A stretch of 64,000 bases of DNA from Candidatus Saccharimonadales bacterium (GCA_035479795.1 DATIII010000004.1:15668-79667), one strand, 5' to 3'; counted from the first letter of the stretch, positions 3,873 through 63,865 are shown. Notes: generated by a model not told the origin, from the sequence alone. Program-made: numbers and translations.

Positions 3873-3906
3873 GCAATTATTAAACAGCTAGTGCTATAAT
3901 TACTCC

Positions 3907-6018: not shown

Positions 6019-7056
6019 ATGAGTTATCTGGTTGCTTTTGCCATAGCCTTTGCATTGTCGCTGGCAATCACGCCGCTGGTTCGGCGGTTTGCGATTGCCA
6101 GAGGTATTCTAGATCTGCCGGCGGAACGTAAGGTTCATGTCGAGCCAGTTGCCCGCATGGGTGGTCTGGCCATTGTGGCTAGCTTTATGGCGGTCACTCT
6201 CGCAGTAGTGCCAGCAACCCGCCAGCTTAGTGCGCTGCTGGGTGGAGTTGTCATCTTGGCCGTGGTTGGAATAATCGATGACGTGCGAGGACTGGCCCCA
6301 GGTGTCAAATTTGCCTGGCAGATTGTGGCAGCCATGGTCGCCCTGGCCGGCGGGATCGGCATTACGGCCATTACCAATCCGCTAGGCGGTTCTATTGATC
6401 TGCAATGGGGGAGATTCCCCGTGGATGTTTGGGGTTGGCATTTTCATATTGCCCCAATTGCTAACTTAATCAGTATTCTATGGATGGTTGGTATGGTTAA
6501 CGTCATTAATTTTCTCGATGGTCTCGACGGTTTGGCCTGTGGGGTTTCAACCATCACCGCCCTGGTAATGTTTGTGTTGGCCCTAAATGTCGACCAGCCA
6601 ATTGTGGCGCTGCTGGCCATTATTACCGCTGGCTCGGCGCTGGGCTTTCTACCATATAACTTCTTTCCGGCTCGGATATTCATGGGCGATACCGGAGCTT
6701 ACTTCCTGGGGTTGATCATTGCTATGCTGGCCATTTACTCTGGAGGCAAGCTGGCTACGGCTCTGTTGGTGGTCGGTTTTACTATCATCGATTCGCTTTG
6801 GGCCGTGATTCGCCGGCTGCGGCGCGGCAGCCATCCCTTTAAGGCTGATCGCGAGCATCTGCATCATTTGCTACTCGAAGCCGGTTTGAGCCAGCGGGTA
6901 GCAGTACTATTGCTGTATCTGCTGGCTGTTATATTTGGGTTAATCGCCTTGGCTTCAGGTAGTTTTTCCAAGCTAGTGGCCCTAATTGTCTTGATAGTGG
7001 TAACCGTAACTTTAATAGCTACTTTGCTCCGTTTAGCGGGTCGTCGACGGGTTTAA
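6019..7056 (+). CDS. Polyprenyl-phosphate N-acetylhexosamine-1-phosphate transferase (MraY/WecA family)
   Basis: Multi-TM protein with GIIDDVRGL and NVINFLDGLDGLACG motifs typical of the MraY/WecA/TagO family. Confidence 0.8.
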   Translation: MSYLVAFAIAFALSLAITPLVRRFAIARGILDLPAERKVHVEPVARMGGLAIVASFMAVTLAVVPATRQLSALLGGVVILAVVGIIDDVRGLAPGVKFAWQIVAAMVALAGGIGITAITNPLGGSIDLQWGRFPVDVWGWHFHIAPIANLISILWMVGMVNVINFLDGLDGLACGVSTITALVMFVLALNVDQPIVALLAIITAGSALGFLPYNFFPARIFMGDTGAYFLGLIIAMLAIYSGGKLATALLVVGFTIIDSLWAVIRRLRRGSHPFKADREHLHHLLLEAGLSQRVAVLLLYLLAVIFGLIALASGSFSKLVALIVLIVVTVTLIATLLRLAGRRRV

Positions 7057-15372: not shown

Positions 15373-16548
15373 TTAAGCCGGCTGGTAGAACATTAGCCCG
15401 AGCTTGATTTGCAGGGCGTCGTCAAACACTCGTGGGTCAAGCCCAATGACTTTCTTGGTCTTATCTAATCTGTAAATTAAGGTGTTGCGGTGGACATGGA
15501 GTTTCTCAGCGGCTTCCGTTAGATTTAGCCCAGCCTGCAGGAATGTCTGAACGGTCTTATATAACTGCTCATCTTTTAACAAAGGATAGAGAATCTGGTG
15601 GGCCAGCTCGGCTTTGCGCTCCTGGGCCACATTGGCCAGGGTCACAAACATGCCGACTTGCTTGATGTGATAAACCCGGCCGGTGCCCCACACCTTGGTG
15701 CCGACCGTCAGGCTGAGCTTGGCTTCCTGAAAGCTCTTGCGCAGGCCACCGAGCTCGGGATAATACTGGCCGACACCGACAGAAACCTTTTTATTTGGGA
15801 ACCGCTTGGCTAGTAAATCGTGCTCATAATGACCCTTTTCAATCATGAAACGCATGGTGTTGCGTAGGGTTAGACCCTCGCCGCCGATGCCTTTGGAGAG
15901 CACGAAGATGTTGTTGCCGATGTAGCAGGCCAGATTGCCAGTGTGATTGTTAAAGCTGGCCTGAATCGCGTTGGTAATCTCGCTGGCGGCTCGAGCTACT
16001 TCCTGCTCCTGTTCGTCCGGTGTGAGCGGGGCGTGTTCGAGCCGAATGTCTTGTTCGAAGCGCTCGATTTCAATCAAGATAATGGCTTGCGGCTGGCGCA
16101 GGTTGATCTGCAGGATGTCGGCCTGACGGTAAGCCTCGGCCGCTTCAATTTTGGTGGAGGTCAGTACTTGTTTGATAAAGTTGGCCCGGATTTTTTCTGA
16201 TGGCTGGACGTGCTCGAGTAGGAAATGTTGGTGGGTAATAACCTCGGCTAGGCCTTGGAGCAGGCTGATGGCTTCGGGGGTGGTATGGGCACCTTCTTCC
16301 ACCACACCAAAGGCACCAACGGTTTGGTTTTCATACACAAACGGGCACCAGGCCACTGAAGCGTCACCCAAGCCAGTGCGAACCACCCGTCCCTCCTGGC
16401 AGGCCCTAAGGGCATCAACCAGGATCTGCCCATTATAGTTGCCTTGGGAAAGCACCAAGCCCTTGGCGTCGGCCACTAGCACACTGCGCTTCAATACGGT
16501 TTTGGCGCGCTCGGTGATTTGACCGGCGACGGCAGGATTTAATCGCAT
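15373..16548 (-). CDS. CdaR/PucR-family transcriptional regulator
   Basis: C-terminal HTH LHVHRNTLIYRLDKTKKVIGLDPRVFDDALQIKLGLMF typical of PucR/CdaR C-terminal domains. Confidence 0.75.
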   Translation of the reverse strand: MRLNPAVAGQITERAKTVLKRSVLVADAKGLVLSQGNYNGQILVDALRACQEGRVVRTGLGDASVAWCPFVYENQTVGAFGVVEEGAHTTPEAISLLQGLAEVITHQHFLLEHVQPSEKIRANFIKQVLTSTKIEAAEAYRQADILQINLRQPQAIILIEIERFEQDIRLEHAPLTPDEQEQEVARAASEITNAIQASFNNHTGNLACYIGNNIFVLSKGIGGEGLTLRNTMRFMIEKGHYEHDLLAKRFPNKKVSVGVGQYYPELGGLRKSFQEAKLSLTVGTKVWGTGRVYHIKQVGMFVTLANVAQERKAELAHQILYPLLKDEQLYKTVQTFLQAGLNLTEAAEKLHVHRNTLIYRLDKTKKVIGLDPRVFDDALQIKLGLMFYQPA

Positions 16549-16552
16549 AGCG

Positions 16553-16637
16553 GCTCCGGGATGCGGGATACGGGATGCAGAATACAGAAATAACTATGAG
16601 CTTCTCCGAATCCTGAATCCTGAATCCTGAATCCTGT
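16553..16637. repeat. Inverted arrays of tandem heptamers (CGGGATR x3-4 ... GAATCCT x4) immediately upstream of the regulator start
   Basis: ccgggatgcgggatacgggatgcagaatacag ... ccgaatcctgaatcctgaatcctgaatcctg. Confidence 0.8.
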
Positions 16638-16639
16638 TC

Positions 16640-17758
16640 TCACGATTGTTCCACAAACTTAGTAAATAGAATGGCTAGTTTTATCTGCACCGCATCATCA
16701 AAGCTACGCGGGTCCAGATTAAGTGTTTCGGCTATGCGGTCCAGTCGATATACCAGGGTGTTGCGGTGAATCCCCAGTTCGTCGGCCGTCTGCGTCAGAC
16801 CCATGTTGTTTTTAAAGAAGCTCTCAAGCGTTTGAATCACGCCGTCGTTTTCGCCCAGCTTCTCGAGCAGCTCGCGGGAAAAGTAGATGTTGCTTTCATC
16901 AATACCAGATAGCAAGGGAGCCACCACACCAAAGTCGTCGATGTGATACACCCGGTCTTTATCCCAGTTTTGCGCGCCCAGCTCGATGGCCGAAATAGCC
17001 TCGGAGTAGCTAGTGCGCAGGCCGTCCACCCCGGGGTGGTAGTTGCCAATACCGACAGTGGTGGGGCTTTTGAGCTCACCTCGGAAGATTTGGTAGATGG
17101 TGTGGATTGATTTTTTGAACCGGTCCAGTGATTCTTCCAGCGAAGTTTCGCCGCCATTTAGGTCCTTTAAAATGCAGAAGGCATTATTGCCAAGGTAGGC
17201 GATAATGTTTGATTTACTCGAGGTGTAATAAGAGTTCAAGCCGCGGCTAATGCCGAATTTGTAGCGCGTGATGCGCATTTCGCGGTCGCCTTCGTCGCGG
17301 GTCTCGCCGGTTAATACCGGATCGTCGACGGTTACTACAATGGCAATGCGCGGCACGCTCAGGTCGATGTCGAACAGCCGAGCCTCGGCGGTGATCAGTC
17401 GATCGTCGGTGGAGTGCCCGGCCAATAGGTCGTATACAAATTTATCCAGCCGTTCTTCCTGGTGGGGGAGCTGCTCAATCAGGATGGTTTGGTGCAGCAG
17501 TAGCTCGGCTATTGATCGAATCAGCGGGGCGATTTCTTCATGATTCGGCATCTGCCGGCTGAGTAAGACATAGCCCGTGGGCTTGGCGCTGTGCTGGACC
17601 ACGATGGCCCATGGATAATTGCTAATATCCAGGCTCTCCTGGACGTTGGGATCGTTTGTGGATAAAACAGTCCCCTCGGTGTCTACCACCGAAAGTGGCT
17701 GATTAACCAGGGCGCCGACCTTATCTTGGATGCGCTCCGCGATATGCTGGTTTAGCAC
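16640..17758 (-). CDS. CdaR/PucR-family transcriptional regulator (paralog)
   Basis: C-terminal HTH LGIHRNTLVYRLDRIAETLNLDPRSFDDAVQIKLAILF. Confidence 0.75.
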   Translation of the reverse strand: MLNQHIAERIQDKVGALVNQPLSVVDTEGTVLSTNDPNVQESLDISNYPWAIVVQHSAKPTGYVLLSRQMPNHEEIAPLIRSIAELLLHQTILIEQLPHQEERLDKFVYDLLAGHSTDDRLITAEARLFDIDLSVPRIAIVVTVDDPVLTGETRDEGDREMRITRYKFGISRGLNSYYTSSKSNIIAYLGNNAFCILKDLNGGETSLEESLDRFKKSIHTIYQIFRGELKSPTTVGIGNYHPGVDGLRTSYSEAISAIELGAQNWDKDRVYHIDDFGVVAPLLSGIDESNIYFSRELLEKLGENDGVIQTLESFFKNNMGLTQTADELGIHRNTLVYRLDRIAETLNLDPRSFDDAVQIKLAILFTKFVEQS

Positions 17759-23120: not shown

Positions 23121-23187
23121 CGCGGCGATCTCAAATGCTGGATTGCCGCACTCGCTCTAGGGTGACGGATGAGGGTATAATTTTCAT

Positions 23188-24543
23188 ATGCCCATAAGCT
23201 TTACCATTTTTGTGGCCAAAACCTTATCCGTACTTAGTCGCGGCCTGGGGAGGGGGAGCGGGTCGGCCTTGCCCGGACTGATCGCTGAACGGCTCGACCC
23301 CGGGATCGGCCGCAAGCTGGCTCGGCGTCTGCCGCATGGCAGTATTATTGTCACAGGCACCAACGGCAAGACCACCACTTCAAGATTACTAGCTGGAATT
23401 ATGACCGACAGCGGCGACAGGCTAGTTACTAATCGGGCAGGTTCGAACTTAAGCCGGGGAGTGGTCTCGGCCTTAATTGATCATGCCGGTCTAAGTGGCA
23501 GATTTAAAGAAACTGCTGGGCTGTTTGAGGTTGATGAGGCAGCTATGCCGGCTGTGGCTAGGATGTTGCAGCCCCGTGCCATTATTGTCCTGAATCTGTT
23601 TCGTGACCAGTTGGATCGCTACGGTGAGCTAGATACCACGGCGAACCTGGTAGGTCAGGGCATTGAGGCCACCAAGGCCGAAGTCTATCTGAATGCCGAC
23701 GATCCGCTGGTGGCCACCTTGGCTAAATACGCGGCCGGCAGGGTTAAGTTTTTTGGGATCGATAAGGTTCCGATTAAAAAGCTTGAACATGACCATAGTG
23801 CCGACTCGGCACATTGCCCCGTTGATGGCCGAGCTCTTAAGTTTAGCCAGAACTTCTTTGGTCACATTGGCCACTACAAGTGTCCCAACGGAGATTTTGC
23901 CAGGCCTCGCCCAGATGTATCGGCTAATCATTTAAAGCTTGGTGATTCGACAACGTTTCGGCTAGAAAATGGTGAATCCGAAGCTATCAAATTGAATTTG
24001 CCAGGCATTTACAACGTTTACAATGCATTAGCGGCCGGGGCGCTGGCCGTTGACCATTTAGGACTCGAGCCAGCCTCGGTGGCGCGGTCAATTGAGAACG
24101 TTAAAGCCGCCTTTGGGAGGGTCGAGCAACTGGAGTGGATGGGCAAAAAGCTCAATCTGCTGCTGGTTAAAAATCCGACCGGCTTTAATCAGGTAATTCA
24201 AACCTTTATGTTGAAGAAAAAACAACAAAAAGTTCTATTTATTATCAATGATAACTTTGCAGACGGTCGTGATGTCTCCTGGCTGTGGGATGTGGCCTTT
24301 GAGGAGCTTGTAGGCATGAAACACCACATTACGACCTCGGGAATTCGCTCAGCCGATATGGCCTTGCGCCTCAAATACGCAGAAGTTAAGGCCGAGCTGG
24401 GTGACGTAGGGATTCGCCGAGCATTGAAACATTTTTGTGCTCAACTTGATGAAAATGAAGTTGGATTAGTTGTCCCAACCTACACTGCAATGCTGGAAAC
24501 CCGACAGATTATGGCTGGCTCAAAGCTGGAGGAACCGGTATGA
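23188..24543 (+). CDS. murT: Lipid II isoglutaminyl synthase, Mur-ligase-like subunit MurT
   Basis: VTGTNGKTTT Mur ligase P-loop; Cys-rich CPVDGRALKF...HYKCPNG insert; MurT-like C-terminal domain. Confidence 0.75.
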   Translation: MPISFTIFVAKTLSVLSRGLGRGSGSALPGLIAERLDPGIGRKLARRLPHGSIIVTGTNGKTTTSRLLAGIMTDSGDRLVTNRAGSNLSRGVVSALIDHAGLSGRFKETAGLFEVDEAAMPAVARMLQPRAIIVLNLFRDQLDRYGELDTTANLVGQGIEATKAEVYLNADDPLVATLAKYAAGRVKFFGIDKVPIKKLEHDHSADSAHCPVDGRALKFSQNFFGHIGHYKCPNGDFARPRPDVSANHLKLGDSTTFRLENGESEAIKLNLPGIYNVYNALAAGALAVDHLGLEPASVARSIENVKAAFGRVEQLEWMGKKLNLLLVKNPTGFNQVIQTFMLKKKQQKVLFIINDNFADGRDVSWLWDVAFEELVGMKHHITTSGIRSADMALRLKYAEVKAELGDVGIRRALKHFCAQLDENEVGLVVPTYTAMLETRQIMAGSKLEEPV

Positions 24544-28851: not shown

Positions 28852-29490
28852 GTGGTACAATTGCTAGCAATGGATTTGGTTTACATCATATTTGCCCTGG
28901 TAATGGCGCTTACCCTGCACGAATTTGCCCATGCCTGGATGAGCGACTACCTGGGCGACCGCACAGCTCGCTCACATGGTCGCCTAAGTATAAACCCACT
29001 AGTGCATATTGACCCGATTATGACGGTGCTGCTGCCTATCGCTCTGATTGTGGCGCACTCGCCGGTCCTGTTTGGCGCAGCCCGCCCAGTCCCGTTTAAC
29101 CCTTGGGCCGTGCGCTATGGCCGGTGGGGAGCTGCCTTGGTGGCGGCTGCTGGGCCGTTAATGAACCTACTTTTGGCCTGCTTCTTCGCTTTGTGGCTAC
29201 AGCTTTTCCCCGTTGGCGCTTTAGCTCAACTATTTATCGCCATCATTGCCGTCAATGTCGGCTTCATGGTCTTTAACCTGATGCCGATTCCGCCTCTGGA
29301 TGGGTCTCGTGTGGTTTATGCGGCCATCCCCCAGATTCGGGGCCTGTTCGACGCCATAGAGCAGAACGGACTGATTTTAATATTCGTGTTGTTAATCTTT
29401 GCAGGCCCGCTGCTGACAGGCATAATCGGCCCGATCGTCGCTGCAATTTTGTCTCTGCTAATCCCGGGCCTGACTGGTTTATCGACCTAG
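28852..29490 (+). CDS. Site-2 protease family (M50) membrane zinc metalloprotease
   Basis: HEFAHA HExxH motif within a TM helix and FNLMPIPPLDG second motif. Confidence 0.75.
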   Translation: MVQLLAMDLVYIIFALVMALTLHEFAHAWMSDYLGDRTARSHGRLSINPLVHIDPIMTVLLPIALIVAHSPVLFGAARPVPFNPWAVRYGRWGAALVAAAGPLMNLLLACFFALWLQLFPVGALAQLFIAIIAVNVGFMVFNLMPIPPLDGSRVVYAAIPQIRGLFDAIEQNGLILIFVLLIFAGPLLTGIIGPIVAAILSLLIPGLTGLST

Positions 29491-29493
29491 GCC

Positions 29494-29523
29494 TGGATCC
29501 CGAATACTCAATCCTGTATCCTG
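29494..29523. repeat. Short AATCC/ATCCT heptamer-like array
   Basis: GGATCCCGAATACTCAATCCTGTATCCTG. Confidence 0.5.
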
Positions 29524-32846: not shown

Positions 32847-33008
32847 TTTAGGCGCATATTTCGGCGTCTAAAGTGCGTTTTTATCATCACCGTACGCTTT
32901 GTACGCTTCTTCGAAAAACTTGCTTATCCTAGAAATCTGCTGCCCAAATTAACCCAGTACATCTGTTAAACCCTTGAAAAAGTGGCAATTTTCAGGTATA
33001 TTTACCGG

Positions 33009-33384
33009 GCTAAGGCTGCTGGATGGCTGCTCGCCAGAGGCGAGAGGAAAGTCCGGACAGCACAGAGTAAGGACGGTTGCTAACGGCAACCGGGACCAGG
33101 GAATGTGTTTCTCTCGAGAAAACATAGGCCCAAAGCCTAGGGAAAGTGCCACAGAAACGATACCGCTCACCATTTTGTGAGTAAGGGTGAAACGAGCAGG
33201 GTAAGAGCCTGCAGCCCCTCCGGGTGACCGGCGGGGGAGGTAAACCCCGTCTGCTGCAAGGCTGCTGGCAATCAGAGAGTACTCGCTCCTGCCAGCGTTC
33301 GCGCCGCACGACCCCGACGGTGACGTCGGGGCTAGATAGATGGCCATCCAATCCGCCAGCTGGCGGAGGGACAGAATCCGGCTT
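33009..33384 (+). ncRNA. rnpB: RNase P RNA (bacterial type A)
   Basis: P1 helix GCTAAGGCTGC (33009-19) pairs with GCAGCCTTAGC (33370-80). Conserved GAGGAAAGTCCGG, ACAGAAACGATACCGC and GGGTGAAACGAGCAGGGTAAGAGC blocks. Overlapping track ORFs are spurious. Confidence 0.85.
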
Positions 33385-33477
33385 ATAGGCAGCCTTAGCT
33401 TAGAATAATTATCCTTCCCGAGGGGAGGGTTTTTATTTTTCAACCTGATAAAATAGTTATGTAAAAAGTGTGAGTTT

Positions 33478-34932: not shown

Positions 34933-35017
34933 TGCCAGGATTCAGGATTCAGGATTCAGGGTTCAGGATTTTCAAGCTTCTCCTAAATTCTAAACTCCAC
35001 ACTCTAAACCCTGGCAC
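34924..35017. repeat. Inverted heptamer arrays (CAGGATT x5 ... degenerate TAAAYTC) upstream of the GT4 gene
   Basis: GTGCCAGGATTCAGGATTCAGGATTCAGGGTTCAGGATTTTC ... CTCCTAAATTCTAAACTCCACACTCTAAACCCTGGCAC, with flanking 8-bp inverted ends GTGCCAGG/CCTGGCAC. Confidence 0.75.
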
Positions 35018-37356: not shown

Positions 37357-37390
37357 CAATCTGGTCAATAAGTCGGGATTCAGTATTTAG
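37357..37390. repeat. Single-copy palindromic GGATTC...GAATCC motif upstream of infC
   Basis: GGGATTCAGTATTTAGAATCCAGAATGCAGG. Confidence 0.45.
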
Positions 37391-37411
37391 AATCCAGAAT
37401 GCAGGAGAAAA

Positions 37412-39133: not shown

Positions 39134-39227
39134 AATGATGGGTATGTTCAAACAGCACCTTCTATTAGCTTTATTTAGTATACTGACGGCCCCCGAAGGC
39201 ATCAACTTGTTCGTGACGTAGTATAAT

Positions 39228-39524
39228 TTGGTTATGGCCAAGCGGAAAAAAACTAAAAAGAAGGTGACTCACAAGAACCGACCAGTTAGCCAGAGTAATA
39301 CTGCTAGCTCCAAGGCTTTTAGCGATGTGGTAACTAATCCTGAGCCAGAAGTTGAGGTAAAAAAACCGATAACTGTGGCTAATTCGACAACAAACTATGT
39401 CATAAGTGACGTTGTAAGAATTGGGGCACTAGTAGTCTTCTTTGTCGTCCTCCAGCTTGGGCTATGGTTAGCATTTAATCATTCTGATCTGGGAAAGTCA
39501 GTTTACGGACTAATTAAAATCTAG
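39228..39524 (+). CDS. Small lysine-rich protein with C-terminal TM helix, hypothetical
   Basis: MVMAKRKKTKKKVTHK... ...IGALVVFFVVLQLGLWLAF. Confidence 0.4.
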   Translation: MVMAKRKKTKKKVTHKNRPVSQSNTASSKAFSDVVTNPEPEVEVKKPITVANSTTNYVISDVVRIGALVVFFVVLQLGLWLAFNHSDLGKSVYGLIKI

Positions 39525-43719: not shown

Positions 43720-43722
43720 ACT

Positions 43723-43832
43723 CGAAGGATACAGGATTGAGGATACAGGATCCAGAATATGGAGATCGATAAGTCCTTAGCGAAGCCTAAAACGTGTGCT
43801 GTATCCCGAATCCCGAATCCTGTATTCTGTTG
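43723..43832. repeat. Inverted heptamer arrays (GGATWCA x4 ... TGWATCC x4) in a divergent promoter region
   Basis: AAGGATACAGGATTGAGGATACAGGATCCAGAATATGG ... GCTGTATCCCGAATCCCGAATCCTGTATTCTG. Confidence 0.8.
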
Positions 43833-43834
43833 GT

Positions 43835-44848
43835 ATGCATAAGCGTTTGCGGGTGAATGTGGTTTCCGAATCGGCCTTTACGGTGCAAGGCCACGGCGTG
43901 CATACGGCTTTTGAAGAGACGGTGCGGATGCTGCAGTGGGCAAAGAATATGACTGTGGCCTCTAATTCCAACCTGCCAGCCGATATCGTGCACATCCATA
44001 CGGTTGGCGTCTACTCATTATGGAAGTTACTTTTCAGCCGAGGTCGCAAAGTTATATCGGCGCATGTTACGCCGGATTCGTTTGTGGGCAGCCTGGTGGG
44101 TGCTCGCACTTGGTACCCATTGGCTCGTTGGTACCTACGGTGGTTCTATAATCGGGCCGACGGAGTTTTGGCTGTCAGCCACGAAGTTCAAGATGAGCTG
44201 AAGGAGTTAGGCATTACCAAGCCGGTTTATCTAATGCCCAACACCATTGATGTTAGGCCATATAAATCGACTCCGGCTATCAAAAAGGCGGCGCGTAAGC
44301 ATTTGGGCATTGGCGAATCCGAGTTTGTAGTAATCTGTTGTGGCCAAGTCCAGCCCCGCAAGCGGGTTGATACATTTATTCAATGCGCTCGCGATCTGCC
44401 TGATGTTAAGTTCGTTTGGGTTGGCGGAGTGCCCTTTAAGCGAGTAGCTGCCGATTACGGCCATATGAAGCATCTAATGGCCGATCATCCGGTAAATGTT
44501 ACCTTCACCGGAGTGATTAGCCATGCCGACGTGGTGGCCTATTATCAGGCGGCTGATCTCTTCTTTTTACCGTCTGTCCAGGAAACCTTCGGTATCGTCG
44601 TTATCGAAGCAGTGGCGGCGGGGTTGCCGGTACTCTTGCGTGACATCGACCAGTACGAGAAGACCTTCAAGGGCTGGTATTTGAAGGGCGATGAACGTAG
44701 CTTCACCGGGATCATTCATCATTTACAGCATGATAAGAAAGCCTATGCCACGGCCGTGAAGCAGTCGGCACCCATAGCCGAAGAGTACAGCAGTGAACGT
44801 GGGCGCCAGCTGTTGCTTGATATCTACACCCAAGTTTTGCAGCGCTAA
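43835..44848 (+). CDS. Family-4 (GT-B) glycosyltransferase
   Basis: E-x7-E motif FFLPSVQETFGIVVIEAVAAGLPVLL. ORF opens at 43796 inside the repeat array; ATG 43835 preferred. Confidence 0.7.
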   Translation: MHKRLRVNVVSESAFTVQGHGVHTAFEETVRMLQWAKNMTVASNSNLPADIVHIHTVGVYSLWKLLFSRGRKVISAHVTPDSFVGSLVGARTWYPLARWYLRWFYNRADGVLAVSHEVQDELKELGITKPVYLMPNTIDVRPYKSTPAIKKAARKHLGIGESEFVVICCGQVQPRKRVDTFIQCARDLPDVKFVWVGGVPFKRVAADYGHMKHLMADHPVNVTFTGVISHADVVAYYQAADLFFLPSVQETFGIVVIEAVAAGLPVLLRDIDQYEKTFKGWYLKGDERSFTGIIHHLQHDKKAYATAVKQSAPIAEEYSSERGRQLLLDIYTQVLQR

Positions 44849-44863
44849 GCTATAATTAAGCTC

Positions 44864-46132
44864 GTGGAATACCTACGCGCTATTCGCCAGACCGACTTCG
44901 CCAAACTGTGGGTGGCGCAGATTGCCTCACAGGTAGCTGCCAACCTGCTGAATTTCGCCCTTATTATTGTCGTCTATGATCTGACCCAGCAGACTCGATT
45001 TGCCAGCTTTGCGGTGAGTTTACTGGTTCTGTCCTTCGCCATACCCTCGATCTTTGCGGCACCCTTGGCTGGCCAATATGTGGACTATTGGGATCGTAAA
45101 AAGATAATGGTGGCGGCCAATGCGTTGCGAGCGGTGCTAACGATCCTGTACTTGTTTGCCGCCCATAGCTTCTGGTTGATCCTGCTCCTGACCTTTGTCT
45201 CCGCCACCGTAACGCAATTCTTCCTGCCGGCCGAAGCCGCTACAATCCCGAAAGTTGTATCTCCACACAACCTGCTGGCAGCTAACTCGATGTTTGTGTT
45301 TAGTATGTACGCTGCCTTCATGGTGGGGTACTCGGCATCAGGTCCGGTGATTAGTTGGTTTGGGGAGAATGGACCCTTCTACACGGTGATTTTTCTCTAC
45401 GTAATTGCGACCATGCTGGTAACGCTAATTCCGAAGCAGAAGGTAGGGAATGAAGCCGCGGAACGCCCCAAGCTGCATTTGGTGCGACAGTTGAGACACA
45501 ATTGGCAGGTTATCTCAGAGCATCCTGATCGTTATTTTGCCCTAATGCAACTGGCGACCATTCAGGGGGTGGTATTTGTGCTTATAACGCTAGCTCCGGC
45601 GCTCAGCCAGTCGCTCTTGCATGTACCACTGCAGCAGGCCAGCCATGTTTTAATCATCCCCGTGGGCATAGGCATGGTTCTCGGTGTGCTGCTAGTCCAT
45701 TCGGTGGTACGGCAGATTAGCAAGCTGCGCGCTCTACAGGTTTCATTGGTTATATCGGCTGTGGCCTTGGTCTTTTTAGGGCTGACCGGCCAGCTCTACC
45801 GGGACTTTCATGGCAATCCGCTGGTGCCAGTTGCGCAGGTTGGCTTTATTGTGGCTAGCATTATGCTTATTCTCGGGGTGATGAATGCCATGATTAGTTC
45901 GCTGGCTCAAACTCTGCTCCAAGAAACTACTACCGATGAGAATCGTGGTAAGGTCTTTGGATCATTACAGATGATGATTAACCTGGCATCGACACTGCCA
46001 ATCATCTTCACCGGGATTCTGGCCGACCTGCTGAGCGTGACCAAAGTGATTGTCCTGATTGGCGTCCTGCTAGGCGCCTACGGCATTTATTCGATCACTC
46101 AGTATCGCAAGATCCAGCGCCGTTGGGCATAA
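44864..46132 (+). CDS. Major facilitator superfamily transporter
   Basis: 12 predicted TM helices; MFS-like loop G-x-Y-V-D-Y-W-D-R-K-K. Confidence 0.7.
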   Translation: MEYLRAIRQTDFAKLWVAQIASQVAANLLNFALIIVVYDLTQQTRFASFAVSLLVLSFAIPSIFAAPLAGQYVDYWDRKKIMVAANALRAVLTILYLFAAHSFWLILLLTFVSATVTQFFLPAEAATIPKVVSPHNLLAANSMFVFSMYAAFMVGYSASGPVISWFGENGPFYTVIFLYVIATMLVTLIPKQKVGNEAAERPKLHLVRQLRHNWQVISEHPDRYFALMQLATIQGVVFVLITLAPALSQSLLHVPLQQASHVLIIPVGIGMVLGVLLVHSVVRQISKLRALQVSLVISAVALVFLGLTGQLYRDFHGNPLVPVAQVGFIVASIMLILGVMNAMISSLAQTLLQETTTDENRGKVFGSLQMMINLASTLPIIFTGILADLLSVTKVIVLIGVLLGAYGIYSITQYRKIQRRWA

Positions 46133-46391: not shown

Positions 46392-46879
46392 AATACCTCC
46401 AATTAATGCTTTGATTTTCACAACAAAGCCGGCAGCAACCTACCACCAAGATCGAAAAAATCTGTCATTGGCGGGCATGATTTTTTGTTAGTTCGGCGCA
46501 CCCTTATGCTTTATTTCTTATCTGTAAAATGGTATTCTTTCCAAGCTGCATCGAGTATACTTTCATGCAGTTTGGACTAGGGGCTGACAAGCTTCGACGA
46601 TTGGACTTTTACAACTCGCGCCAGCAAGCCGCAGCCATGCGTTAATTGCACCAATCAACAAATCAGAACTTTGTTGCTCGGGTAAAGAGTCTGTTTCAGG
46701 CTCCCACGCTCGTACCTGCTTACGCTTAAGTAAGCCATCGGTACCTGACTCCAGATGGGGGTTCACCGGTGTCATTTATCTGGATGCTGCCGGCGGGACG
46801 CCAGACCCGCGGGTTTAAGACAGTTGGCTGCTCTAGTCGTTATTTTGTTTGTTTCAAGACGACTAGCTAAGCTTTAAAA

Positions 46880-46993
46880 CGAACTAAGCTTGTAGAAGGA
46901 CGAGAGGTAACCATTCGGACCGGGGTGCAATTCCCCGCAGCTCCACCAAAAGGGCGCCAGTAGCAACTGGTGCTTTTTTGTTATGATGAAGCC
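46880..46993 (+). promoter_or_regulatory. Structured 5' leader with terminator-like hairpin directly upstream of the hydrolase gene (candidate riboswitch or attenuator)
   Basis: CGGGGtgcaattCCCCG hairpin, then GCGCCAGTagcaaACTGGTGCTTTTTT ending 25 nt before ATG 46994. Confidence 0.3.
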
Positions 46994-49956: not shown

Positions 49957-50184
49957 CTATTGTACTTTCTGGCGCTTGGTTTTGCCCCAGTGGATCTGGT
50001 TCCAGACTCGTTCATGAAAATAATAGAGCGCGGCGCTCGCCAGGTTGGTGAGAACGATGATCGGCAGGGCGGTTTCAAGCCTGTGGGTGAATAGGAGGAT
50101 AATCGTTAAATCGGAACAGATGACGACCATCCGGAAGCTAAGAGACTTAACCAGTGATCGACTAGCGGCCTCATGGAAGGCCAC
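49957..50184 (-). CDS. DUF2061-family small membrane protein
   Basis: YYFHERVWNQIHWG motif characteristic of DUF2061. Confidence 0.55.
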   Translation of the reverse strand: MAFHEAASRSLVKSLSFRMVVICSDLTIILLFTHRLETALPIIVLTNLASAALYYFHERVWNQIHWGKTKRQKVQ

Positions 50185-51761
50185 TAGCTGGCCTCCAGCT
50201 GAATGATTTCCTCAACCGTCGTGATGCCAGCCAAAACTTTGTTTAGGCCGTCTTCCAGCAAAGTGGCCATGCCGTTTTTAACCGCCAAGGATTCAATGTC
50301 TTGAGCCGTGGTGCGATCGGGGGCCGTCATTAGCTTCTCGATATCCGGAGTAATGGCCATCATCTCAACTATGGCAATCCGGCCTTTATAGCCTAGGCCG
50401 TGGCATTCTTTACAGCCCTCACCTTTTTTAAGCTTTACGGTCTGCGGATTTATCTTGGGCTGTCGGTCAGGGGTGATTGTGGCCAAAGCCCGTTTTAAGA
50501 AGGCCTGCTCCTCTGCGGTGGCTGGTATTTCTTTGGCACAATTATCACAGATGCGGCGAGCTAGGCGCTGGGCAATAATCATCCGAATCGCAGATGGGAA
50601 TAGGGGGTTGGAGCCAATCATGTCCAGCATGCGGCTGATGGCCGTCGAAGCATTAGTGGCGTGGAAGGTAGAGAGCAAGAGGTGGCCGGTCAGGGCGGCC
50701 TGAAGAGCGGTTTTGGCAGTGTCGACGTCGCGAATTTCGCCGATCATGATGACATTCGGGTCTTCGCGCAGGACGGCCCGTAGCTTTTCAATAAACAGCT
50801 CCTTGTCATCACTTTTAACCGGTACTTGGCTAATGCCAGCGATGTCGTATTCTACCGGATCCTCTAGAGTAATGATCTTGGTCTCGGGATTATTTAGGCG
50901 ATTGATGATGGCGTATAGGGTCGAGGTCTTGCCCGAGCCGGTTGGGCCGACGGTTAGCATCATGCCGTTAGGGTGAGCGGTAACTTCGTCAATCCGCTGG
51001 ACCTGTGGCGGTGAGAATCCCATTTCTTCCAAGTGTAAGTTGCGGGTTTCGGCGTTAAATATCCGCACGACGATTTCTTCGCCGTGGAAGGAGGGAATGG
51101 TCTCAATCCGCATGTCCACCCGGCCAATTTCGGCGTGATTGTCCATAAGATCGTAGCTGATACGGCCAGTTTGGGGTTCATCTGAACCCCACTTTATCTC
51201 CGCCCGGGTCTGAAGATCGCTCAAGAATATCTTGTAGGCATCAGTCGCTACTTCGGTAATAGGGTGGAGAACGCCATCCAGCCGGAACCTGACCCGAGCC
51301 GAGTCGGTTTGGGGTTCGATGTGGATGTCGGAGGCCCCCAGCCAAAAGGCCAGTTGGGCAATTAAGCCAAAGGCGTCTTTAGGTGCGGCAATCTTAAGTT
51401 TGTTGCCAAAGGCCTTAAAGTCGCCGTCGCGTTCTGGTTGAAACTGGCGATAGTAAATATGATTGAGAATGTAATTGAAACCGCTCCGGGATATGGTTTT
51501 AAAGGTTAGTTGGGTATGGGCCACAGCCTGCTGCAGCTGGGGTAAGCGAGTTCGATCTGTCTGAGCTGTAATCCCCAGCTCGATGGCATGGTTGCCAGAC
51601 ACCTGCAGTGGCGCCACTTGGTATTCCCGAAGCTGCGCCAGGGACAATACGCCACCGGTGTCAGCCGCCTCCACGATATCAGTGGTGTCGGCGTAGGGGA
51701 TGCCGCTTTTGGTGGCTTCCGCCTGGGTTTTTAATTCTTCAACCGCCCTCGCATCACTCAT
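50184..51761 (-). CDS. Type II secretion/type IV pilus assembly ATPase (GspE/PilB family)
   Basis: Walker A VGPTGSGKTSTLYA, Asp box, His box, CxxC...CxxC tetracysteine. Confidence 0.85.
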   Translation of the reverse strand: MSDARAVEELKTQAEATKSGIPYADTTDIVEAADTGGVLSLAQLREYQVAPLQVSGNHAIELGITAQTDRTRLPQLQQAVAHTQLTFKTISRSGFNYILNHIYYRQFQPERDGDFKAFGNKLKIAAPKDAFGLIAQLAFWLGASDIHIEPQTDSARVRFRLDGVLHPITEVATDAYKIFLSDLQTRAEIKWGSDEPQTGRISYDLMDNHAEIGRVDMRIETIPSFHGEEIVVRIFNAETRNLHLEEMGFSPPQVQRIDEVTAHPNGMMLTVGPTGSGKTSTLYAIINRLNNPETKIITLEDPVEYDIAGISQVPVKSDDKELFIEKLRAVLREDPNVIMIGEIRDVDTAKTALQAALTGHLLLSTFHATNASTAISRMLDMIGSNPLFPSAIRMIIAQRLARRICDNCAKEIPATAEEQAFLKRALATITPDRQPKINPQTVKLKKGEGCKECHGLGYKGRIAIVEMMAITPDIEKLMTAPDRTTAQDIESLAVKNGMATLLEDGLNKVLAGITTVEEIIQLEAS

Positions 51762-51769
51762 TGCTTATA

Positions 51770-51890
51770 GAATATAGGATTCAGGATTCAGGATCCAGGA
51801 AAGAAGTGGCCAATCTAAGGAGACAGGATCTCGCATTGAGGATCAAAAGAGGGAATTTAAATCCTAGATCCTAAATCCTAGATCCTGTAA
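51770..51890. repeat. Inverted heptamer arrays (GGATTCA x3 ... AATCCTAGATCCT x2) in a divergent promoter region
   Basis: GAATATAGGATTCAGGATTCAGGATCCAGG ... GACAGGATCTCGCATTGAGGATC ... TTAAATCCTAGATCCTAAATCCTAGATCCTG. Confidence 0.8.
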
Positions 51891-51900
51891 TGTTTCTAGT

Positions 51901-53214
51901 GTGAACGACGAAATTATTATTCATCAGCACGAGCTTGATAAGCAGCCAGAGGTGAAGTCTCCCAGTCCGTGGCCCTCACGATTAAAGAAAATCGGAATTG
52001 CTCTGGCGATTATTCTGCTCGCGGCAGGCATTTTTGTCGTTATTAATTTATTTAAAGTGTCGGTTAACCCCTTTGGTTTCGGTCATCTTAAGGGAGAGTC
52101 GGACGGTCGGGTTAATATCCTGATGCTGGGGGTAGGTGATCCCGGCCATGCCGGCGAGAACCTGACCGACACCAATATTATCTTGAGTGTAAATACCAGG
52201 ACTCATCAGGTAGCGACGATTGGTGTGCCTCGCGATTTACGGGTCAGATTGCACGGCGACGGTTATGCCAAGGTTAATACGGCTTATTCCAGTGGCGGGA
52301 TCGATGGGGCTAAAAAGACCTTCGAAGACTCTTTTGGTTTGCCGATCCATTACTACGTAAAGGCCAACTTCACGGGCTTAAAAGAAGTTGTCGATGCTGT
52401 TGGGGGCGTGGACATCGACAATCAGTATGCTTTGAGCGATCCTGAGTATCCTTGTGACAAGAACGAGAACCGCAGCTGTGGGTTTCGGCTAACCGCCGGC
52501 CAGCATCATTTAGATGGAGCCACGGCTCTTAAATACGTCCGCTGCCGTAAAGGTACCTGTGGCGACGACTTTGGACGGGCGGAGCGGCAGCAGCAGGTGA
52601 TGCAGTCGATTCGCGATCACGCCACTTCGGCTGGTACGCTAGCCAATCCTCTTGCGCTGGGCCGCCTGGTAGCTGCGGCTGGCAGCAATATTAAAACCGA
52701 TTTGAGCATAAACAACCTGCAGCGGTTAAATGAACTGACCAAGGGTGGCGATGTTATTCGGGTAGTATTTAATCTTCAACCTGACGGCTTTCTCACTACA
52801 TCTGGATCCAGCGATCTTGTACCGGCTGGTGGTGACTTTGATGACATTCAGGAGTTTGTCAAAAATATATTTGTGGTTGGTCCAATCTGGAGCGAGCACC
52901 CGACAGTGATGATCGAAAACGGCACCACTACACCTGGTATTGGGGCTAAATTCCAGCAGAAGTTAAAGAGTGATGGTTATGATATCTCGGTTACGGCTGT
53001 GACAAATGCTTTGACCAAGGACTTCGCGACTTCCAAGATTATCGATTACACCAATGGCGCCAAAAACCACACCAAAGGCTACCTCTTGAATTTACTAGGG
53101 CTGAAGGAAGTCAGCGCGCCGGAAAAGCCAACCAAGTATCCGCCAGCCGACTTTGTGATAATCCTCGGATCGGATTACGCCGCTAGTTCTACAAGTACTA
53201 AATCAAACCAGTAG
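51901..53214 (+). CDS. LytR-CpsA-Psr (LCP) family cell-envelope phosphotransferase
   Basis: GTG start; N-terminal TM; NILMLGVGDPGHAGENLTDTNIILSVN...IGVPRD LCP core. Confidence 0.8.
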   Translation: MNDEIIIHQHELDKQPEVKSPSPWPSRLKKIGIALAIILLAAGIFVVINLFKVSVNPFGFGHLKGESDGRVNILMLGVGDPGHAGENLTDTNIILSVNTRTHQVATIGVPRDLRVRLHGDGYAKVNTAYSSGGIDGAKKTFEDSFGLPIHYYVKANFTGLKEVVDAVGGVDIDNQYALSDPEYPCDKNENRSCGFRLTAGQHHLDGATALKYVRCRKGTCGDDFGRAERQQQVMQSIRDHATSAGTLANPLALGRLVAAAGSNIKTDLSINNLQRLNELTKGGDVIRVVFNLQPDGFLTTSGSSDLVPAGGDFDDIQEFVKNIFVVGPIWSEHPTVMIENGTTTPGIGAKFQQKLKSDGYDISVTAVTNALTKDFATSKIIDYTNGAKNHTKGYLLNLLGLKEVSAPEKPTKYPPADFVIILGSDYAASSTSTKSNQ

Positions 53215-57074: not shown

Positions 57075-57713
57075 GTGACTATTACAAAGTACCCGCAATC
57101 GTGTCTCAAAATTGAAAAAGACGGCCGAACCTTGCTCGTCGACGTTGGCACACTAGCCACGGCCGAGTTTGGCCTAAAAGACTTTGGACATTTTGATGCC
57201 GTGCTCTTTACACACAGCCACCCCGACCACTTCGATCCAAAATTTTTGCCTCAATTAATTAAGGCTGGTGCGACTCTTTATGGTAACGGGGATGTGGCGG
57301 CCAGGGCGGACGGCTCCAAGGTGGAGCTGGTCGATGACAATGAGGAGTTAGTAGTGGCTGGTTTTAAGATTAAGGCTCATCCGATGGAGCACTGCCTAAT
57401 GACCGATGGCTCGCCAGCAGGCATCCCTAATACCGGTTATCTGCTTGACGACCATTTGCTTTTACCAGGTGACAGCACCGAGGACGTTGGCATCAAGGCC
57501 AAGGTGGTGGCCATTCCCATCTTTGGGCCAGATATCAGTCCCCATGACGCCTTTAAGCAGTCTACGGATACCGAAGCGGAGATAGTGATTCCAGTTCACT
57601 ATGATGTTGCCCAGATTAATCCAGATGTATTTAAGATCTTTGCTGGTCTCGGATCTGAGAGTCTTAAGGCGAAGATTCACACTTTAGAGAACGGCGAATC
57701 TATCCAGGTGTAA
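57075..57713 (+). CDS. MBL-fold metallo-hydrolase
   Basis: GTG start with GGAG Shine-Dalgarno; LFTHSHPDHFD motif. Confidence 0.65.
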   Translation: MTITKYPQSCLKIEKDGRTLLVDVGTLATAEFGLKDFGHFDAVLFTHSHPDHFDPKFLPQLIKAGATLYGNGDVAARADGSKVELVDDNEELVVAGFKIKAHPMEHCLMTDGSPAGIPNTGYLLDDHLLLPGDSTEDVGIKAKVVAIPIFGPDISPHDAFKQSTDTEAEIVIPVHYDVAQINPDVFKIFAGLGSESLKAKIHTLENGESIQV

Positions 57714-58152
57714 CTTCGCGGGCCGCCTCGCGCTCCTGCGTCCGCCGTTTAATGGTTTCGCGTTTGTCATAATGCTTTTTACCCCGCCCCAAGCCGATCT
57801 CCAATTTCACCAGCCCGCGCTCCTCGAGTAGGGCTAGGGGTACTATCTGTAAACCGCTTTGTTTGCGACCAATTAGTTCGCCCAGTTGTTTGCGGTGCAG
57901 TAGCAATTTACGGCTGCGTGTTGGGTCCAATCGACTCTGGTTACCTGCCGCGTTGTAGGGGGTGAAGTGAGCGTTTGTCAGCCAAGCTTCGCCTCCGGAA
58001 ATGTTTACAAAGCTGCCCTTGAGACTAACCTGCCCCAATTTAGCGCTTTTAACTTCGGCTCCGGACAACACCAACCCAGCTACCAGTTTGTCGTCAATCT
58101 GGTAGTCGAAGTTGGCGCGGCGGTTGCGGGCTAATACTTTCATACCAGGCAT
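57700..58152 (-). CDS. smpB: SsrA-binding protein SmpB
   Basis: NRRANFDYQI...GAEVKS...G.AWLTNAHFTPY...KLLLH signature. The likelier start is MKVLARN at 58143. Confidence 0.85.
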   Translation of the reverse strand: MPGMKVLARNRRANFDYQIDDKLVAGLVLSGAEVKSAKLGQVSLKGSFVNISGGEAWLTNAHFTPYNAAGNQSRLDPTRSRKLLLHRKQLGELIGRKQSGLQIVPLALLEERGLVKLEIGLGRGKKHYDKRETIKRRTQEREAAREVTPG

Positions 58153-58183
58153 TATACAAAGCCTCGGGGCTAACTGATATAAT

Positions 58184-59812
58184 GTGGTTATGATTTTGAG
58201 TCACATATCTAAATTTGTGGCCCAAACTATTGAGCGGGAGTACGGTATCACCGACGTAGAGCCGGCTATAAGCTATCCGGACCCGCGGTTTGGGGATTAT
58301 GCCACTAATGTGGCGTTTAGTCTTTCTGGACGCCTGAAAAAGCCCCCACAAGAAATTGCGGAGCACTTGGCTGGTATGATCAAGGATGAAATAATCCTAT
58401 CGGCCAAGGCTGACCGGGGATTTATTAACCTTCGGATGCAGCCTCTATTCTGGATTGAGCGCCTAACTGAGATCAATAAGTCCTTTGGCGCTACCCACCA
58501 GGGCAACGGGAAGAAGTTGCAGGTAGAGTTTATCTCGGCCAATCCTACGGGGCCGCTGACCCTAGGTAATGCCCGTGGCGGCTATGTCGGTGATGTCCTG
58601 GCCCGGGTGCTCCAGCATGCTGAATATGATGTAACCAAAGAGTACTATTTTAACGACGCTGGTACCCAGATACGAATTCTGGTTGAATCAGTCCGCGCCG
58701 CTGCTGGTTTAGTGCCGGTCGAGGAGAGTCATTACCCTGGCGCATATATTAAAGAACTGGCCGAGAAGTATCGTAGCGACCTAGATACTAAGAGCTATGA
58801 CGAACTGGCCGCCATGCTGACCGAAGATATCTTCGAGCATCAGGTGAAACCAGCCATTGATCAGATGGGTATTATTTACAACGAATGGTTCAATGAGCGC
58901 CAATTAATCACCAGTGGAGAGTTTGATGAGACGATTAAGCTGCTTCAAAGTCATAAGCTGACATACGAAAAGGACGGAGCGCTTTGGCTGGCCAGTGAAC
59001 AGCTTGGTGATGAGCGCGACCGAGTGCTGCGTAAGTCCAATGGGGATGTAACCTATCTTGGTACAGACATTGCCTACCATCACAACATCTTTATAAAACG
59101 TGACTTTGATGAGGCGATTAAGATTTGGGGCGCCGATCATGCCGGACAGGTGCCTTCACTTAATCTCACTATGGACAAGTTAACACCTGGAAAGAAGCTT
59201 AACTTCCTAATCTTGCAGTGGGTGCGCCTAATGAGGGGCGGTAAAGAGGTTAAAATGAGCAAGCGAGCCGGCACCTATGTGACAGTCAGTGATTTGCTGG
59301 CAGAGGTCGATTCGGATGTTGCCCGATTCTTTTTCCTGATGCGCTCAGCTGATAGTCATATGGATTTTGACCTCGATTTAGCCAAAGAGCGCAGTCAGAA
59401 GAACCCGCTGTATTACGTAATGTACTCCTATGCCCGGGCCCATTCGATTCTGCGACAAGCCCAGGATCGCAAACTGGCACCGGTCAGTACGGTCAGCGAG
59501 CTAACTGATCATGAACTGGCGGTGGTTCGCCAGATGGCAATGCTCCCAGAGCTAATTGCTGAGATTGTCAGCAATTACCAGGTCCATAAGTTAGCTTTCT
59601 ATGGCATTGAAACGGCTCGGGCCTTCCATGACCTCTATGAGTCCGAGCGCATTATTGACCTGGATAAGTCGGTGGCCAGCAAACGGCTCTACTTGATCCA
59701 GCAATACGTGGTGTTTATGGAGGTCTATTTCCAGCTGATGGGTATCACACCTATTAGCCGCATGGATCGTGAAGATGAGTCTCGGGGGAGCAATGGATCT
59801 AAGCGGACTTAA
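58184..59812 (+). CDS. argS: Arginyl-tRNA synthetase
   Basis: Class I signature region ANPTGPLTLGNARGGYVGD and KMSK-like MSKRAGTYVTVSDL. Confidence 0.85.
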   Translation: MVMILSHISKFVAQTIEREYGITDVEPAISYPDPRFGDYATNVAFSLSGRLKKPPQEIAEHLAGMIKDEIILSAKADRGFINLRMQPLFWIERLTEINKSFGATHQGNGKKLQVEFISANPTGPLTLGNARGGYVGDVLARVLQHAEYDVTKEYYFNDAGTQIRILVESVRAAAGLVPVEESHYPGAYIKELAEKYRSDLDTKSYDELAAMLTEDIFEHQVKPAIDQMGIIYNEWFNERQLITSGEFDETIKLLQSHKLTYEKDGALWLASEQLGDERDRVLRKSNGDVTYLGTDIAYHHNIFIKRDFDEAIKIWGADHAGQVPSLNLTMDKLTPGKKLNFLILQWVRLMRGGKEVKMSKRAGTYVTVSDLLAEVDSDVARFFFLMRSADSHMDFDLDLAKERSQKNPLYYVMYSYARAHSILRQAQDRKLAPVSTVSELTDHELAVVRQMAMLPELIAEIVSNYQVHKLAFYGIETARAFHDLYESERIIDLDKSVASKRLYLIQQYVVFMEVYFQLMGITPISRMDREDESRGSNGSKRT

Positions 59813-63479: not shown

Positions 63480-63740
63480 TCAGGCATTGAGATCGATCGC
63501 GGTTGAGTCTTCGGCGCCGGTGCGGTTGTCACCGCGATCGCTGCGTCGGCCAGATGACTTGGGGCGATTGCCAGACTTGCTCGTCTTGCTGGATCCGTTG
63601 TGAACTACTACGACTCGACCCCTTTCTTTCCGGACGAGCTCGACGGTGGTCATCTCGCCGCAGCCAGTGCAAGGAAAACCCTTGCGCAGGTTGCGGGCGT
63701 GCTCTCCACATTTGGTACATCCAGGGTAGGCTTTCGCCAT
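63480..63740 (-). CDS. Small zinc-ribbon protein with basic disordered tail, hypothetical (GC-rich islet)
   Basis: CTKCGEH...CTGCGE two CxxC pairs; start taken at MAKAYPG. Confidence 0.4.
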   Translation of the reverse strand: MAKAYPGCTKCGEHARNLRKGFPCTGCGEMTTVELVRKERGRVVVVHNGSSKTSKSGNRPKSSGRRSDRGDNRTGAEDSTAIDLNA

Positions 63741-63865
63741 CCGGGAACCTTTCATAGAGCGTGCAGGACGGGGAGAATTTAACATTTTACAGATGTAAAG
63801 TCAATGAACTAGGTACCAAATTAGCATGCTAGCATCGGTAGTTTGAGTTAAGGTACAATACGGCT

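Follow-up and report, generated by a model that had tools for sequence, protein, structure and literature searches.

The closest described parallels to the locus reported here are the heptamer arrays of Xanthomonas and Nostoc, in which units of GGGAATC and GGGGA(C/T)T respectively are repeated within intergenic regions with a preference for four units (Rehm 2015, PMC4692102). Xanthomonas genomes contain 70-75 inverted array pairs each "in convergent orientation", with the G-rich sequence on the non-coding strand immediately before ORFs and on the coding strand immediately past stop codons, and only few inverted pairs were found in Nostoc (PMC4692102). Genes of all functional classes neighbour the Xanthomonas arrays, which are under-represented between divergent ORFs; their length and sequence vary between relatives and 83% of the repeats are shared by two species (PMC4692102). 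Their function is unknown and G-quadruplex formation has been proposed (Rehm 2015, PMC4692102), with a preprint on Nostoc describing modest effects of heptamer repeats on promoter reporters. Cyanobacterial STRR heptamers (Calothrix and Nostoc) are, in the form in which they are cited in the same report, genome-specific intergenic tandem families of unknown function (PMC4692102). It is with these STRR sequences that tandem heptamers were first recognised in bacterial genomes. TAACTGA direct heptamers from Beggiatoaceae, cyanobacteria and Bacteroidetes end a few nucleotides upstream of start codons (MacGregor 2015, PMC4679880). These occupy intergenic regions lacking a canonical ribosome binding site, accompany all functional classes and are proposed to act on translation from the 5' UTR, and their sets comprise 169 direct and 1 inverted (PMC4679880). 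Heptads with a proven function in promoters include the 7-bp simple-sequence repeats (SSR) of hmw1A/hmw2A in H. influenzae and the TTTTGAT repeats of ctxAB in V. cholerae (PMC8262952, PMC12721329). In the literature on Saccharibacteria we found no report of such intergenic repeats. Further afield are REP/BIME and REPIN sequences, dispersed extragenic hairpin-forming inverted repeats that often occur as inverted doublets and affect RNA ends and DNA topology without being gene-specific. REPs are unique imperfect palindromes of 20-40 nt whose sequence is conserved, and they depend on RAYT transposases for their mobility.

Here we analysed a stretch of 64,000 nucleotides from a Saccharimonadales genome (hereafter the window) and found, between the genes for a PilB-like ATPase and an LCP protein, an element that represents a lineage-specific variant of the known, poorly understood inverted-pair class of heptamer simple-sequence repeats. 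The gap between the two genes measures 139 bp and is nearly filled by this single element (51776-51886), with the layout 5'-(AGGATNN)4, 55 nt of what look like decayed in-register units, (NNATCCT)4-3' (Table 1). A sequence-only reading of the window had placed arrays at 51770-51890, and these are real and as described save for small errors of count. GGATTCA occurs only twice (51777, 51784) and not three times before the expected GGATCCA (51791), the two central copies of AGGATC are in place at 51825 and 51839, AAATCCTAGATCCT is present in two perfect copies (51859-51886), and the GTG of LCP at 51901 lies 14 nt and not 13 nt past the array. The architecture had been called a mirror; the two arms do face each other, being inverted (reverse-complement) repeats rather than true mirror repeats in the H-DNA sense. 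They are 28-30 nt long and complementary at 80-82%. TRF detected period 7 at 51776-51800 and 51861-51886, and for the complete right arm a period of 14 with 2.1 copies at 100%. One more unit to the left, AGAATAT (51769-51775), is degenerate and better read as the -10-like box of PilB. The one AGGAG and two AGGAT motifs of the spacer keep exactly to the 7-nt register of the left arm, which makes the spacer look like the decayed inner portion of a formerly longer left array, and a direct repeat links the left arm with the spacer at a spacing of 49 = 7x7 and 70% identity. The element is identical across the MAG and two independent Logan assemblies, all from one population, and owing to this exact agreement it is not an assembly artefact. 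The GTG start of LCP aligns with the ATG start (MNEEIIIHQ/MNDEIIIH) of its relatives.

Table 1. Features of the PilB/LCP element and other members of the heptamer-array family. Positions refer to the window unless a contig is named.
Feature	Position	Strand	Composition or context
PilB/GspE-like type II/IV secretion ATPase gene	50184-51761	-	525 aa; Pfam T2SSE, E 5.5e-98
-10-like hexamer TATATT	51771-51776	-	9 nt before PilB ATG; overlaps first base of left arm
Left (5') arm	51776-51803	+	AGGATTC AGGATTC AGGATCC AGGAAAG, period 7
55-nt "spacer"	51804-51858	+	AGGAG (51818), AGGAT (51825), AGGAT (51839)
Right (3') arm	51859-51886	-	(AAATCCT AGATCCT)x2 = reverse complement of AGGATCT AGGATTT x2
-10-like hexamer TGTAAT	51886-51891	+	9 nt before LCP GTG; overlaps last base of right arm
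LCP (LytR-CpsA-Psr) gene	51901-53214	+	437 aa, GTG start; LytR_cpsA_psr + LytR_C, E 1.6e-38
Inverted pair at PilB/LCP, by array scan	51769-51886		divergent genes
Inverted pair, 5 + 4 units, 40-nt spacer	43726-43828		between two divergent GT4 glycosyltransferase genes
Inverted pair	16558-16635		CGGGATR x3 + CAGAATA, 22-nt spacer, GAATCCT x4; between tandem PucR-family regulator genes
(CAGGATT)5 (34937-34971), then degenerate right arm (CTCCTAAATTCTAAACTCC...CCCT)	34937-35012		sugar-transferase / GT4 genes, same strand
Single degenerate array	37375-37409	+	between DAGK-like gene stop and infC promoter-like site (TTGACC-17-TACACT)
Single array, ATCCT type on + strand	29495-29522	-	5 nt past stop of ORF 28852-29490
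Single ATCCT-type array GAATCCT GTATTCT AAATCCT GGATCCT	L134 14658-14761		ends exactly at first base of tRNA-Arg(CCT), 5' end
Second locus outside window: pair, degenerate right arm			then TGTTATAAT, AGGAG, ATG

The element belongs to a dispersed family. A scan for arrays of at least three units with period 7, allowing one mismatch to AGGAT, returned nine arms at six loci of the window with 4-5 units in the arms at all of them. All six loci fall inside the 12.4% of the window that is intergenic, an outcome with a probability of ~4e-6 under random placement, and AGGATYNAGGATY matches the window 10 times where 0.03 are expected, a number reached by 0 of 100 shuffles. The sequence-only reading was thus right to argue against chance, and also right that the architecture recurs at a divergent gene pair (GT4/GT4); the pair at 16558 is a further recurrence. 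Together with two loci just outside the window there are about 8 loci in ~82 kb of contig, all of them intergenic, amounting to about one copy per 10 kb of this Saccharimonadales genome. The proposal that the element is dedicated to divergent pairs is not supported, as the family is found between divergent genes, between tandem genes, after a 3' end (29495) and next to a tRNA gene, that of tRNA-Arg. An overlap with coding sequence at 43801 is only apparent: the GTG ORF concerned is over-extended, and the gene in the database starts with ATG at 43835. In the three clear pairs of the window the AGGAT arm always comes first, and their spacers of 22, 40 and 55 nt are unrelated in sequence. The longest perfect run is 2 units at the PilB/LCP element and 4 units at 16608. 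One independent Logan contig ends at 16632 (L492 position 1) within the perfect (CAGGATT)4 array at 16608-16635, a break that we attribute to dispersed repeats breaking assemblies. The two genes at this site are tandem PucR paralogues (GGDEF_2 + HTH_30; 15373-16548 and 16640-17758) separated only by the heptamer-array pair.

To place the family among related genomes we compared the available relatives, which by PilB identity are L131 (77%), L133 (70%) and L004 (68%), the protein database containing no relative closer than 77%. Local synteny is kept for ClpB, LCP, PilB, MFS and GT4. In ~64 kb of syntenic sequence from L004, L005, L131 and L133 there is no heptamer array, versus 8 loci in ~82 kb here; at the density of this genome ~6 arrays would be expected in the relatives, with a Poisson probability of ~0.002 for none. 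The orthologous LCP-PilB intergenic region measures 43 bp in L004 and 97 bp in L131 and is free of arrays in L004, L131 and L005, showing that the arrays are not conserved at orthologous promoters. The sequence-only reading had taken absence of arrays from orthologous loci in close relatives, together with unchanged expression, as what would speak against it. In the closest relatives available, the regions syntenic with the LCP-PilB and GT4-GT4 gaps were without arrays, a result that goes half of the way against its dedicated element and argues against a conserved operator for PilB and LCP. With PilB identity no higher than 77% in the nearest relative, a recent gain in this lineage is not separable from loss elsewhere. 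In L131 an unrelated 30-bp palindrome (AAAAGCGCTAAGCCC/GGGGCTACCGCTTTT) occupies the same LCP-PilB intergenic position (6113-6142). We also considered a cyanobacterial origin of the window and rejected it, as HIP1 (GCGATCGC) is not enriched (1 in the window vs 1.6 expected) and both the relatives and the protein names are those of Saccharimonadales. The window corresponds to contig CAZQMU010000002.1 of MAG GCA_964594805.1; its PilB protein carries the name Candidatus Saccharimonadales at NCBI, and its best genome matches are MAGs of Saccharimonadia.

The paired form extends well beyond this genome. A metagenome scan for AGGATNN x4 gave at least 120 contigs (L011-L130) with a GC content ranging from 0.27 to 0.72, and pairs within 150 nt in these and the window had the AGGAT arm first in 29 cases and the opposite order in 0 among the matches listed. 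In viral contigs (loci L136-L489) the AGGAT core gave 22 pairs with the G/purine arm first and 3 opposite, the latter being artefacts caused by another, direct repeat. Control searches with two cores of identical base composition gave 51 against 3 (AGTGA) and 28 against 0 (GAGTA), bringing the survey to ~130 pairs with the G/purine-rich arm first versus 6 opposite, at least 3 of these artefacts, among the matches listed. Since both controls yielded similar array numbers and the same paired polar form, the AGGAT core is not special and the paired architecture with its G/purine-rich arm first is general. A further control with TTGGTNN (loci L496 onward), meant to separate G-rich-first from purine-rich-first, produced 133 arrays and one pair only. 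Among the matches listed, 106 pairs had a median spacer of 21.5 nt and arms mostly of 4-5 units; the mode of this wider set was 4 units, in a search that required at least 4 units in one arm. Flanking genes were tandem in 31 cases, divergent in 10 and convergent in 9, roughly in proportion to their availability in the window (52, 12 and 12), and outer ends fell within 40 nt of an ORF start in 28/56 and of an ORF end in 20/56 among the matches listed. For single arrays in the metagenomes, again among the matches listed, an ORF start followed an ATCCT reading in 35 cases vs 18 and an ORF end preceded an AGGAT reading in 25 vs 11. In contig L026 (GC 0.46) two near-identical AGGATTC/AGGATTT pairs (1997-2143 and 2997-3129) flank a diadenylate-cyclase-like (cdaA-like) ORF, one lying between it and a YbbR-like ORF and the other between it and a cation-efflux-like ORF, all on the same strand and with functions read by eye from the translations. 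If these ORFs form an operon, array pairs can sit inside one.

What could such an element do between PilB and LCP? On either side it is bordered by a -10-like hexamer that faces outward and lies 9 nt from a start codon, an arrangement that would probably place it upstream of both mRNAs, and these look leaderless. The LCP hexamer aligns with TGCTACAAT, a motif conserved before LCP in three relatives, and the window and L131 share ATAAGCA-ATG before PilB. At the GT4/GT4 site the outermost units form TATCCT-N6-ATG and TATTCT-N6-ATG with the same symmetry. With transcription start sites inferred from sequence only, the element at both divergent sites would thus lie between outward-facing core promoters, outside either mRNA. 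Of 45 well-defined genes, 9 carry a strong -10 hexamer whose end lies 4-10 nt from the start codon, compared with 1.65% of random positions, which suggests that leaderless or near-leaderless transcription occurs widely in this genome. In many genes a consensus TATAAT stops 6-9 nt short of the start codon and a Shine-Dalgarno sequence is lacking, for example at 3891-3909, 23173-23190, 39219-39236, 44849-44866 and 58175-58192.

We lean, with some reserve, towards a model in which slippage in steps of 7 nt makes arrays appear and decay, the G-first pairing reflects a nucleic-acid structural constraint and the PilB/LCP copy is passive upstream DNA between leaderless promoters. Slippage during replication would both grow and erode the arrays, and the paired G-first form would arise or persist through the constraint on structure and not through a gene-specific protein. 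Both mRNAs at PilB/LCP would start ~7-9 nt downstream of the -10 boxes without a leader, leaving the element as upstream promoter DNA from about -13 to -125 for each gene and outside both transcripts. Its effect would likely be a passive one, in that it would space two promoters that once stood back to back (the distance is 43 bp in one relative) and replace their upstream/-35 regions. Members of the family that are transcribed, at tandem sites, would fold into long imperfect hairpins. The model is not without difficulties. Independent slippage alone can hardly account for eight copies that share the AGGAT core in a streamlined genome whose relatives have none, which implies a copy-and-spread mechanism or a lineage-specific factor, and the G-first polarity together with the modal 4-5 units suggests a functional constraint beyond a purely passive one. 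As two of the three clear window pairs stand at divergent promoters and have -10-like outer units, pairs at such promoters may also play an active promoter role.

A second explanation, possible in our view although rather unlikely, is that the pair functions as an RNA hairpin, either as a bidirectional terminator or insulator devoid of a U-tract or as a REP/BIME-like stabiliser of transcript ends. Either strand of the PilB/LCP intergenic region is predicted to fold as RNA into a long imperfect hairpin of 6-bp helices split by single mismatches, with energies of -42.2 and -43.6 kcal/mol that are far more stable than those of shuffles (z -3.2 and -4.7). The pair at 43720-43835 gave z about -3.3 and other pairs were similar, single arrays not. 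The near-invariant polarity of the survey fits such a hairpin, as a G/purine-first order would yield a pyrimidine-rich 3' RNA arm and a weak RNA:DNA hybrid on both strands, and many family members and metagenomic pairs begin within a few nucleotides of a stop codon. The tandem intergenic regions that contain arrays also have no canonical terminator match. At PilB/LCP and 43726, however, the flanking genes diverge, so that no transcript arrives from upstream that could be terminated, and the start sites proposed above lie outside the element. A terminator scan found no match on the PilB/LCP element, with its 55-nt loop, no T-run in the DNA (no U-tract in the RNA) and both flanking genes pointing away, although the window does have conventional terminators, GC-rich hairpins followed by T-runs, at other places; nor are pairs enriched at gene 3' ends. 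As a test for RNA-level selection, folding energies of the two strands were compared: in 30 elements with tandem context the sense strand folded better than the antisense in 22 and worse in 7, yet the Wilcoxon p value is 0.28, and when half-assigned elements are added the difference is gone (37 vs 33). Rfam 15 gave no match to 51700-51950 at E values up to 10; elsewhere the window carries a class A RNase P RNA (33011-33401, 241 bits), overlapped by a probably spurious minus-strand ORF (32949-33443), as well as a tmRNA (46580-46948, 92 bits) and smpB (57700-58152). A look-up of another ORF, 63480-63785, returned no match of any kind. The CAGGAUG-like units may also suggest a CsrB/RsmZ-like sponge for CsrA; the AGGAU/GGA motifs are predicted to be paired inside the stem, and tblastn detected no csrA in the 82 kb of this genome that were available. 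A DNA cruciform was rejected as unlikely in view of a weak fold of the DNA (-15.8 kcal/mol, z -1.7) with a loop of ~60 nt.

A bolder proposal, to which we give rather less weight, is that inverted heptamer-array pairs with an obligatory G/purine-rich 5' arm are a general functional class of bacterial and phage intergenic elements in which the unit is free and the polarity and ~4-unit length are constrained. If true, members could serve for example as bidirectional U-tract-less hairpin terminators or insulators or as promoter-upstream modules, and selection would explain the presence of about one copy per 10 kb in a streamlined genome. Where promoters diverge, as at PilB/LCP, leaderless genes would take their -10 boxes from the outermost units. 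The quadruplex explanation given for Xanthomonas would then be incidental, because AGGAT arrays incapable of forming G4 structures obey the same rules. Whichever reading is adopted, the polarity rule held for several unrelated heptamer units in our quick survey and is a concrete testable property.

That a DNA-binding protein occupies both arms as an operator and co-regulates divergent envelope genes (PilB/LCP, GT4/GT4) with the arms over the -35 regions is improbable. The arms are indeed symmetric, at about -13 to -41 of the putative promoters, several neighbours are envelope genes (a YkuD gene at L135 included), and promoter heptads bind proteins elsewhere, for example ctxAB TTTTGAT and the SARP heptamers. 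Against this, copies also separate tandem genes, follow stop codons and adjoin a tRNA gene, orthologous promoters of the relatives have no arrays, and a 7-bp period would put successive sites on different faces of the helix. The occurrence of the same architecture with unrelated heptamers in very different taxa argues against a specific protein. Since the family occupies all intergenic contexts, is absent at orthologous loci, has variable spacers and follows a generic architecture, the evidence goes against a dedicated co-regulator of PilB and LCP, as it does against a device reserved for divergent pairs. For genome annotation this means that such arrays should not be taken as gene-specific operators, and also that they break short-read assemblies.

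We regard as still less probable a MITE- or REPIN-like miniature mobile element with heptamer arrays as terminal inverted repeats and its transposase encoded elsewhere. In favour are dispersed intergenic copies, confined to this lineage and with inverted repeats at their ends, and the break of an independent assembly inside one array. Their interiors however are not conserved, inspection of the three pairs by eye showed no target-site duplications or flanking direct repeats, copies are unlike in arm length and unit variants, and the Pfam-annotated stretches, covering most of the ~82 kb of contig, contain no transposase or RAYT-type family. A MITE was rejected on the first two of these grounds, and a REP/REPIN palindrome with conserved spacer because the arms are tandem 7-mers and the spacers of 22, 40 and 55 nt are unrelated.

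There is little to recommend a contingency locus, in which slippage in unit number would tune surface genes by analogy with the hmw1A/hmw2A promoters of Haemophilus influenzae. Tandem 7-nt units do adjoin promoters of surface-related genes (pilus ATPase, LCP, glycosyltransferases), but the units are imperfect, and with a longest perfect run of 2 units at PilB/LCP (4 at 16608) a long perfect phase-variable promoter SSR tract was rejected. Rehm et al. likewise rejected the contingency-locus idea for Xanthomonas (PMC4692102). Furthermore, the arrays here lie upstream of the -10 and not between -35 and -10, many neighbours have housekeeping functions (infC, tRNA), and three assemblies are identical; in the comparison of unit number, every other assembly carrying the flanking proteins was 100% identical, which, with all of them from one population, is uninformative about polymorphism. 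To a G-quadruplex-forming repeat as proposed for Xanthomonas and Nostoc we attach next to no credence: architecture and polarity match the published G4 repeats and a few GGGAT units exist (16558; 43808), but no window array has four G3 tracts on either strand, most units offer GG only, two-tetrad quadruplexes are weak, and the explanation itself is weakened by G4-incapable arrays sharing the Xanthomonas rules (paired, G-rich first, ~4 units, tight to gene ends). A hexamer repeat GCCCAA x5.7 (2761-2794, 96% matches) within ORF 2572-2943 provides, on the minus strand, the window's only G3x4 cluster besides one at about 29100.

How does the family compare with the described systems? Like the repeats of hmw1A/hmw2A and ctxAB it consists of tandem 7-bp units adjoining promoters of surface or virulence genes. 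Those repeats form single, direct arrays of perfect units, are confined to one or two loci and have either documented variation in unit number or defined proteins that bind them, whereas the family here is imperfect, paired and dispersed and shows no variation among the available assemblies. With REP/BIME and REPIN it shares dispersed, extragenic, hairpin-forming inverted repeats; it differs in its tandem 7-mer arms and spacers that are not conserved, and in having no RAYT in the Pfam-annotated parts of ~82 kb. TAACTGA repeats are likewise heptamer arrays near gene starts but have a different unit and are almost all direct. STRR sequences too are tandem intergenic heptamers, with different units and mostly described as single arrays. 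The arrays of Rehm 2015 come nearest. In both cases 7-nt units are arranged head-to-tail in intergenic regions, pairs are convergent with the G-rich arm 5' and the mode is ~4 units, the G-rich sequence falls on the non-coding strand before ORFs and on the coding strand after stops, and the neighbours are mixed. A GGGATTC unit at 43808 is even one base from the Xanthomonas GGGAATC. Unlike the G4 class, units here are mostly AGGATYN with GG only and no G3x4. Three of the 8 loci are between divergent features, a context under-represented in Xanthomonas, and compared with the 83% of repeats shared there none is shared here with the nearest available relatives, which are more distant. Finally, the host is a reduced genome of the candidate phyla radiation (CPR), unlike Xanthomonas, and the class is now seen in a setting where spare intergenic DNA is scarce.
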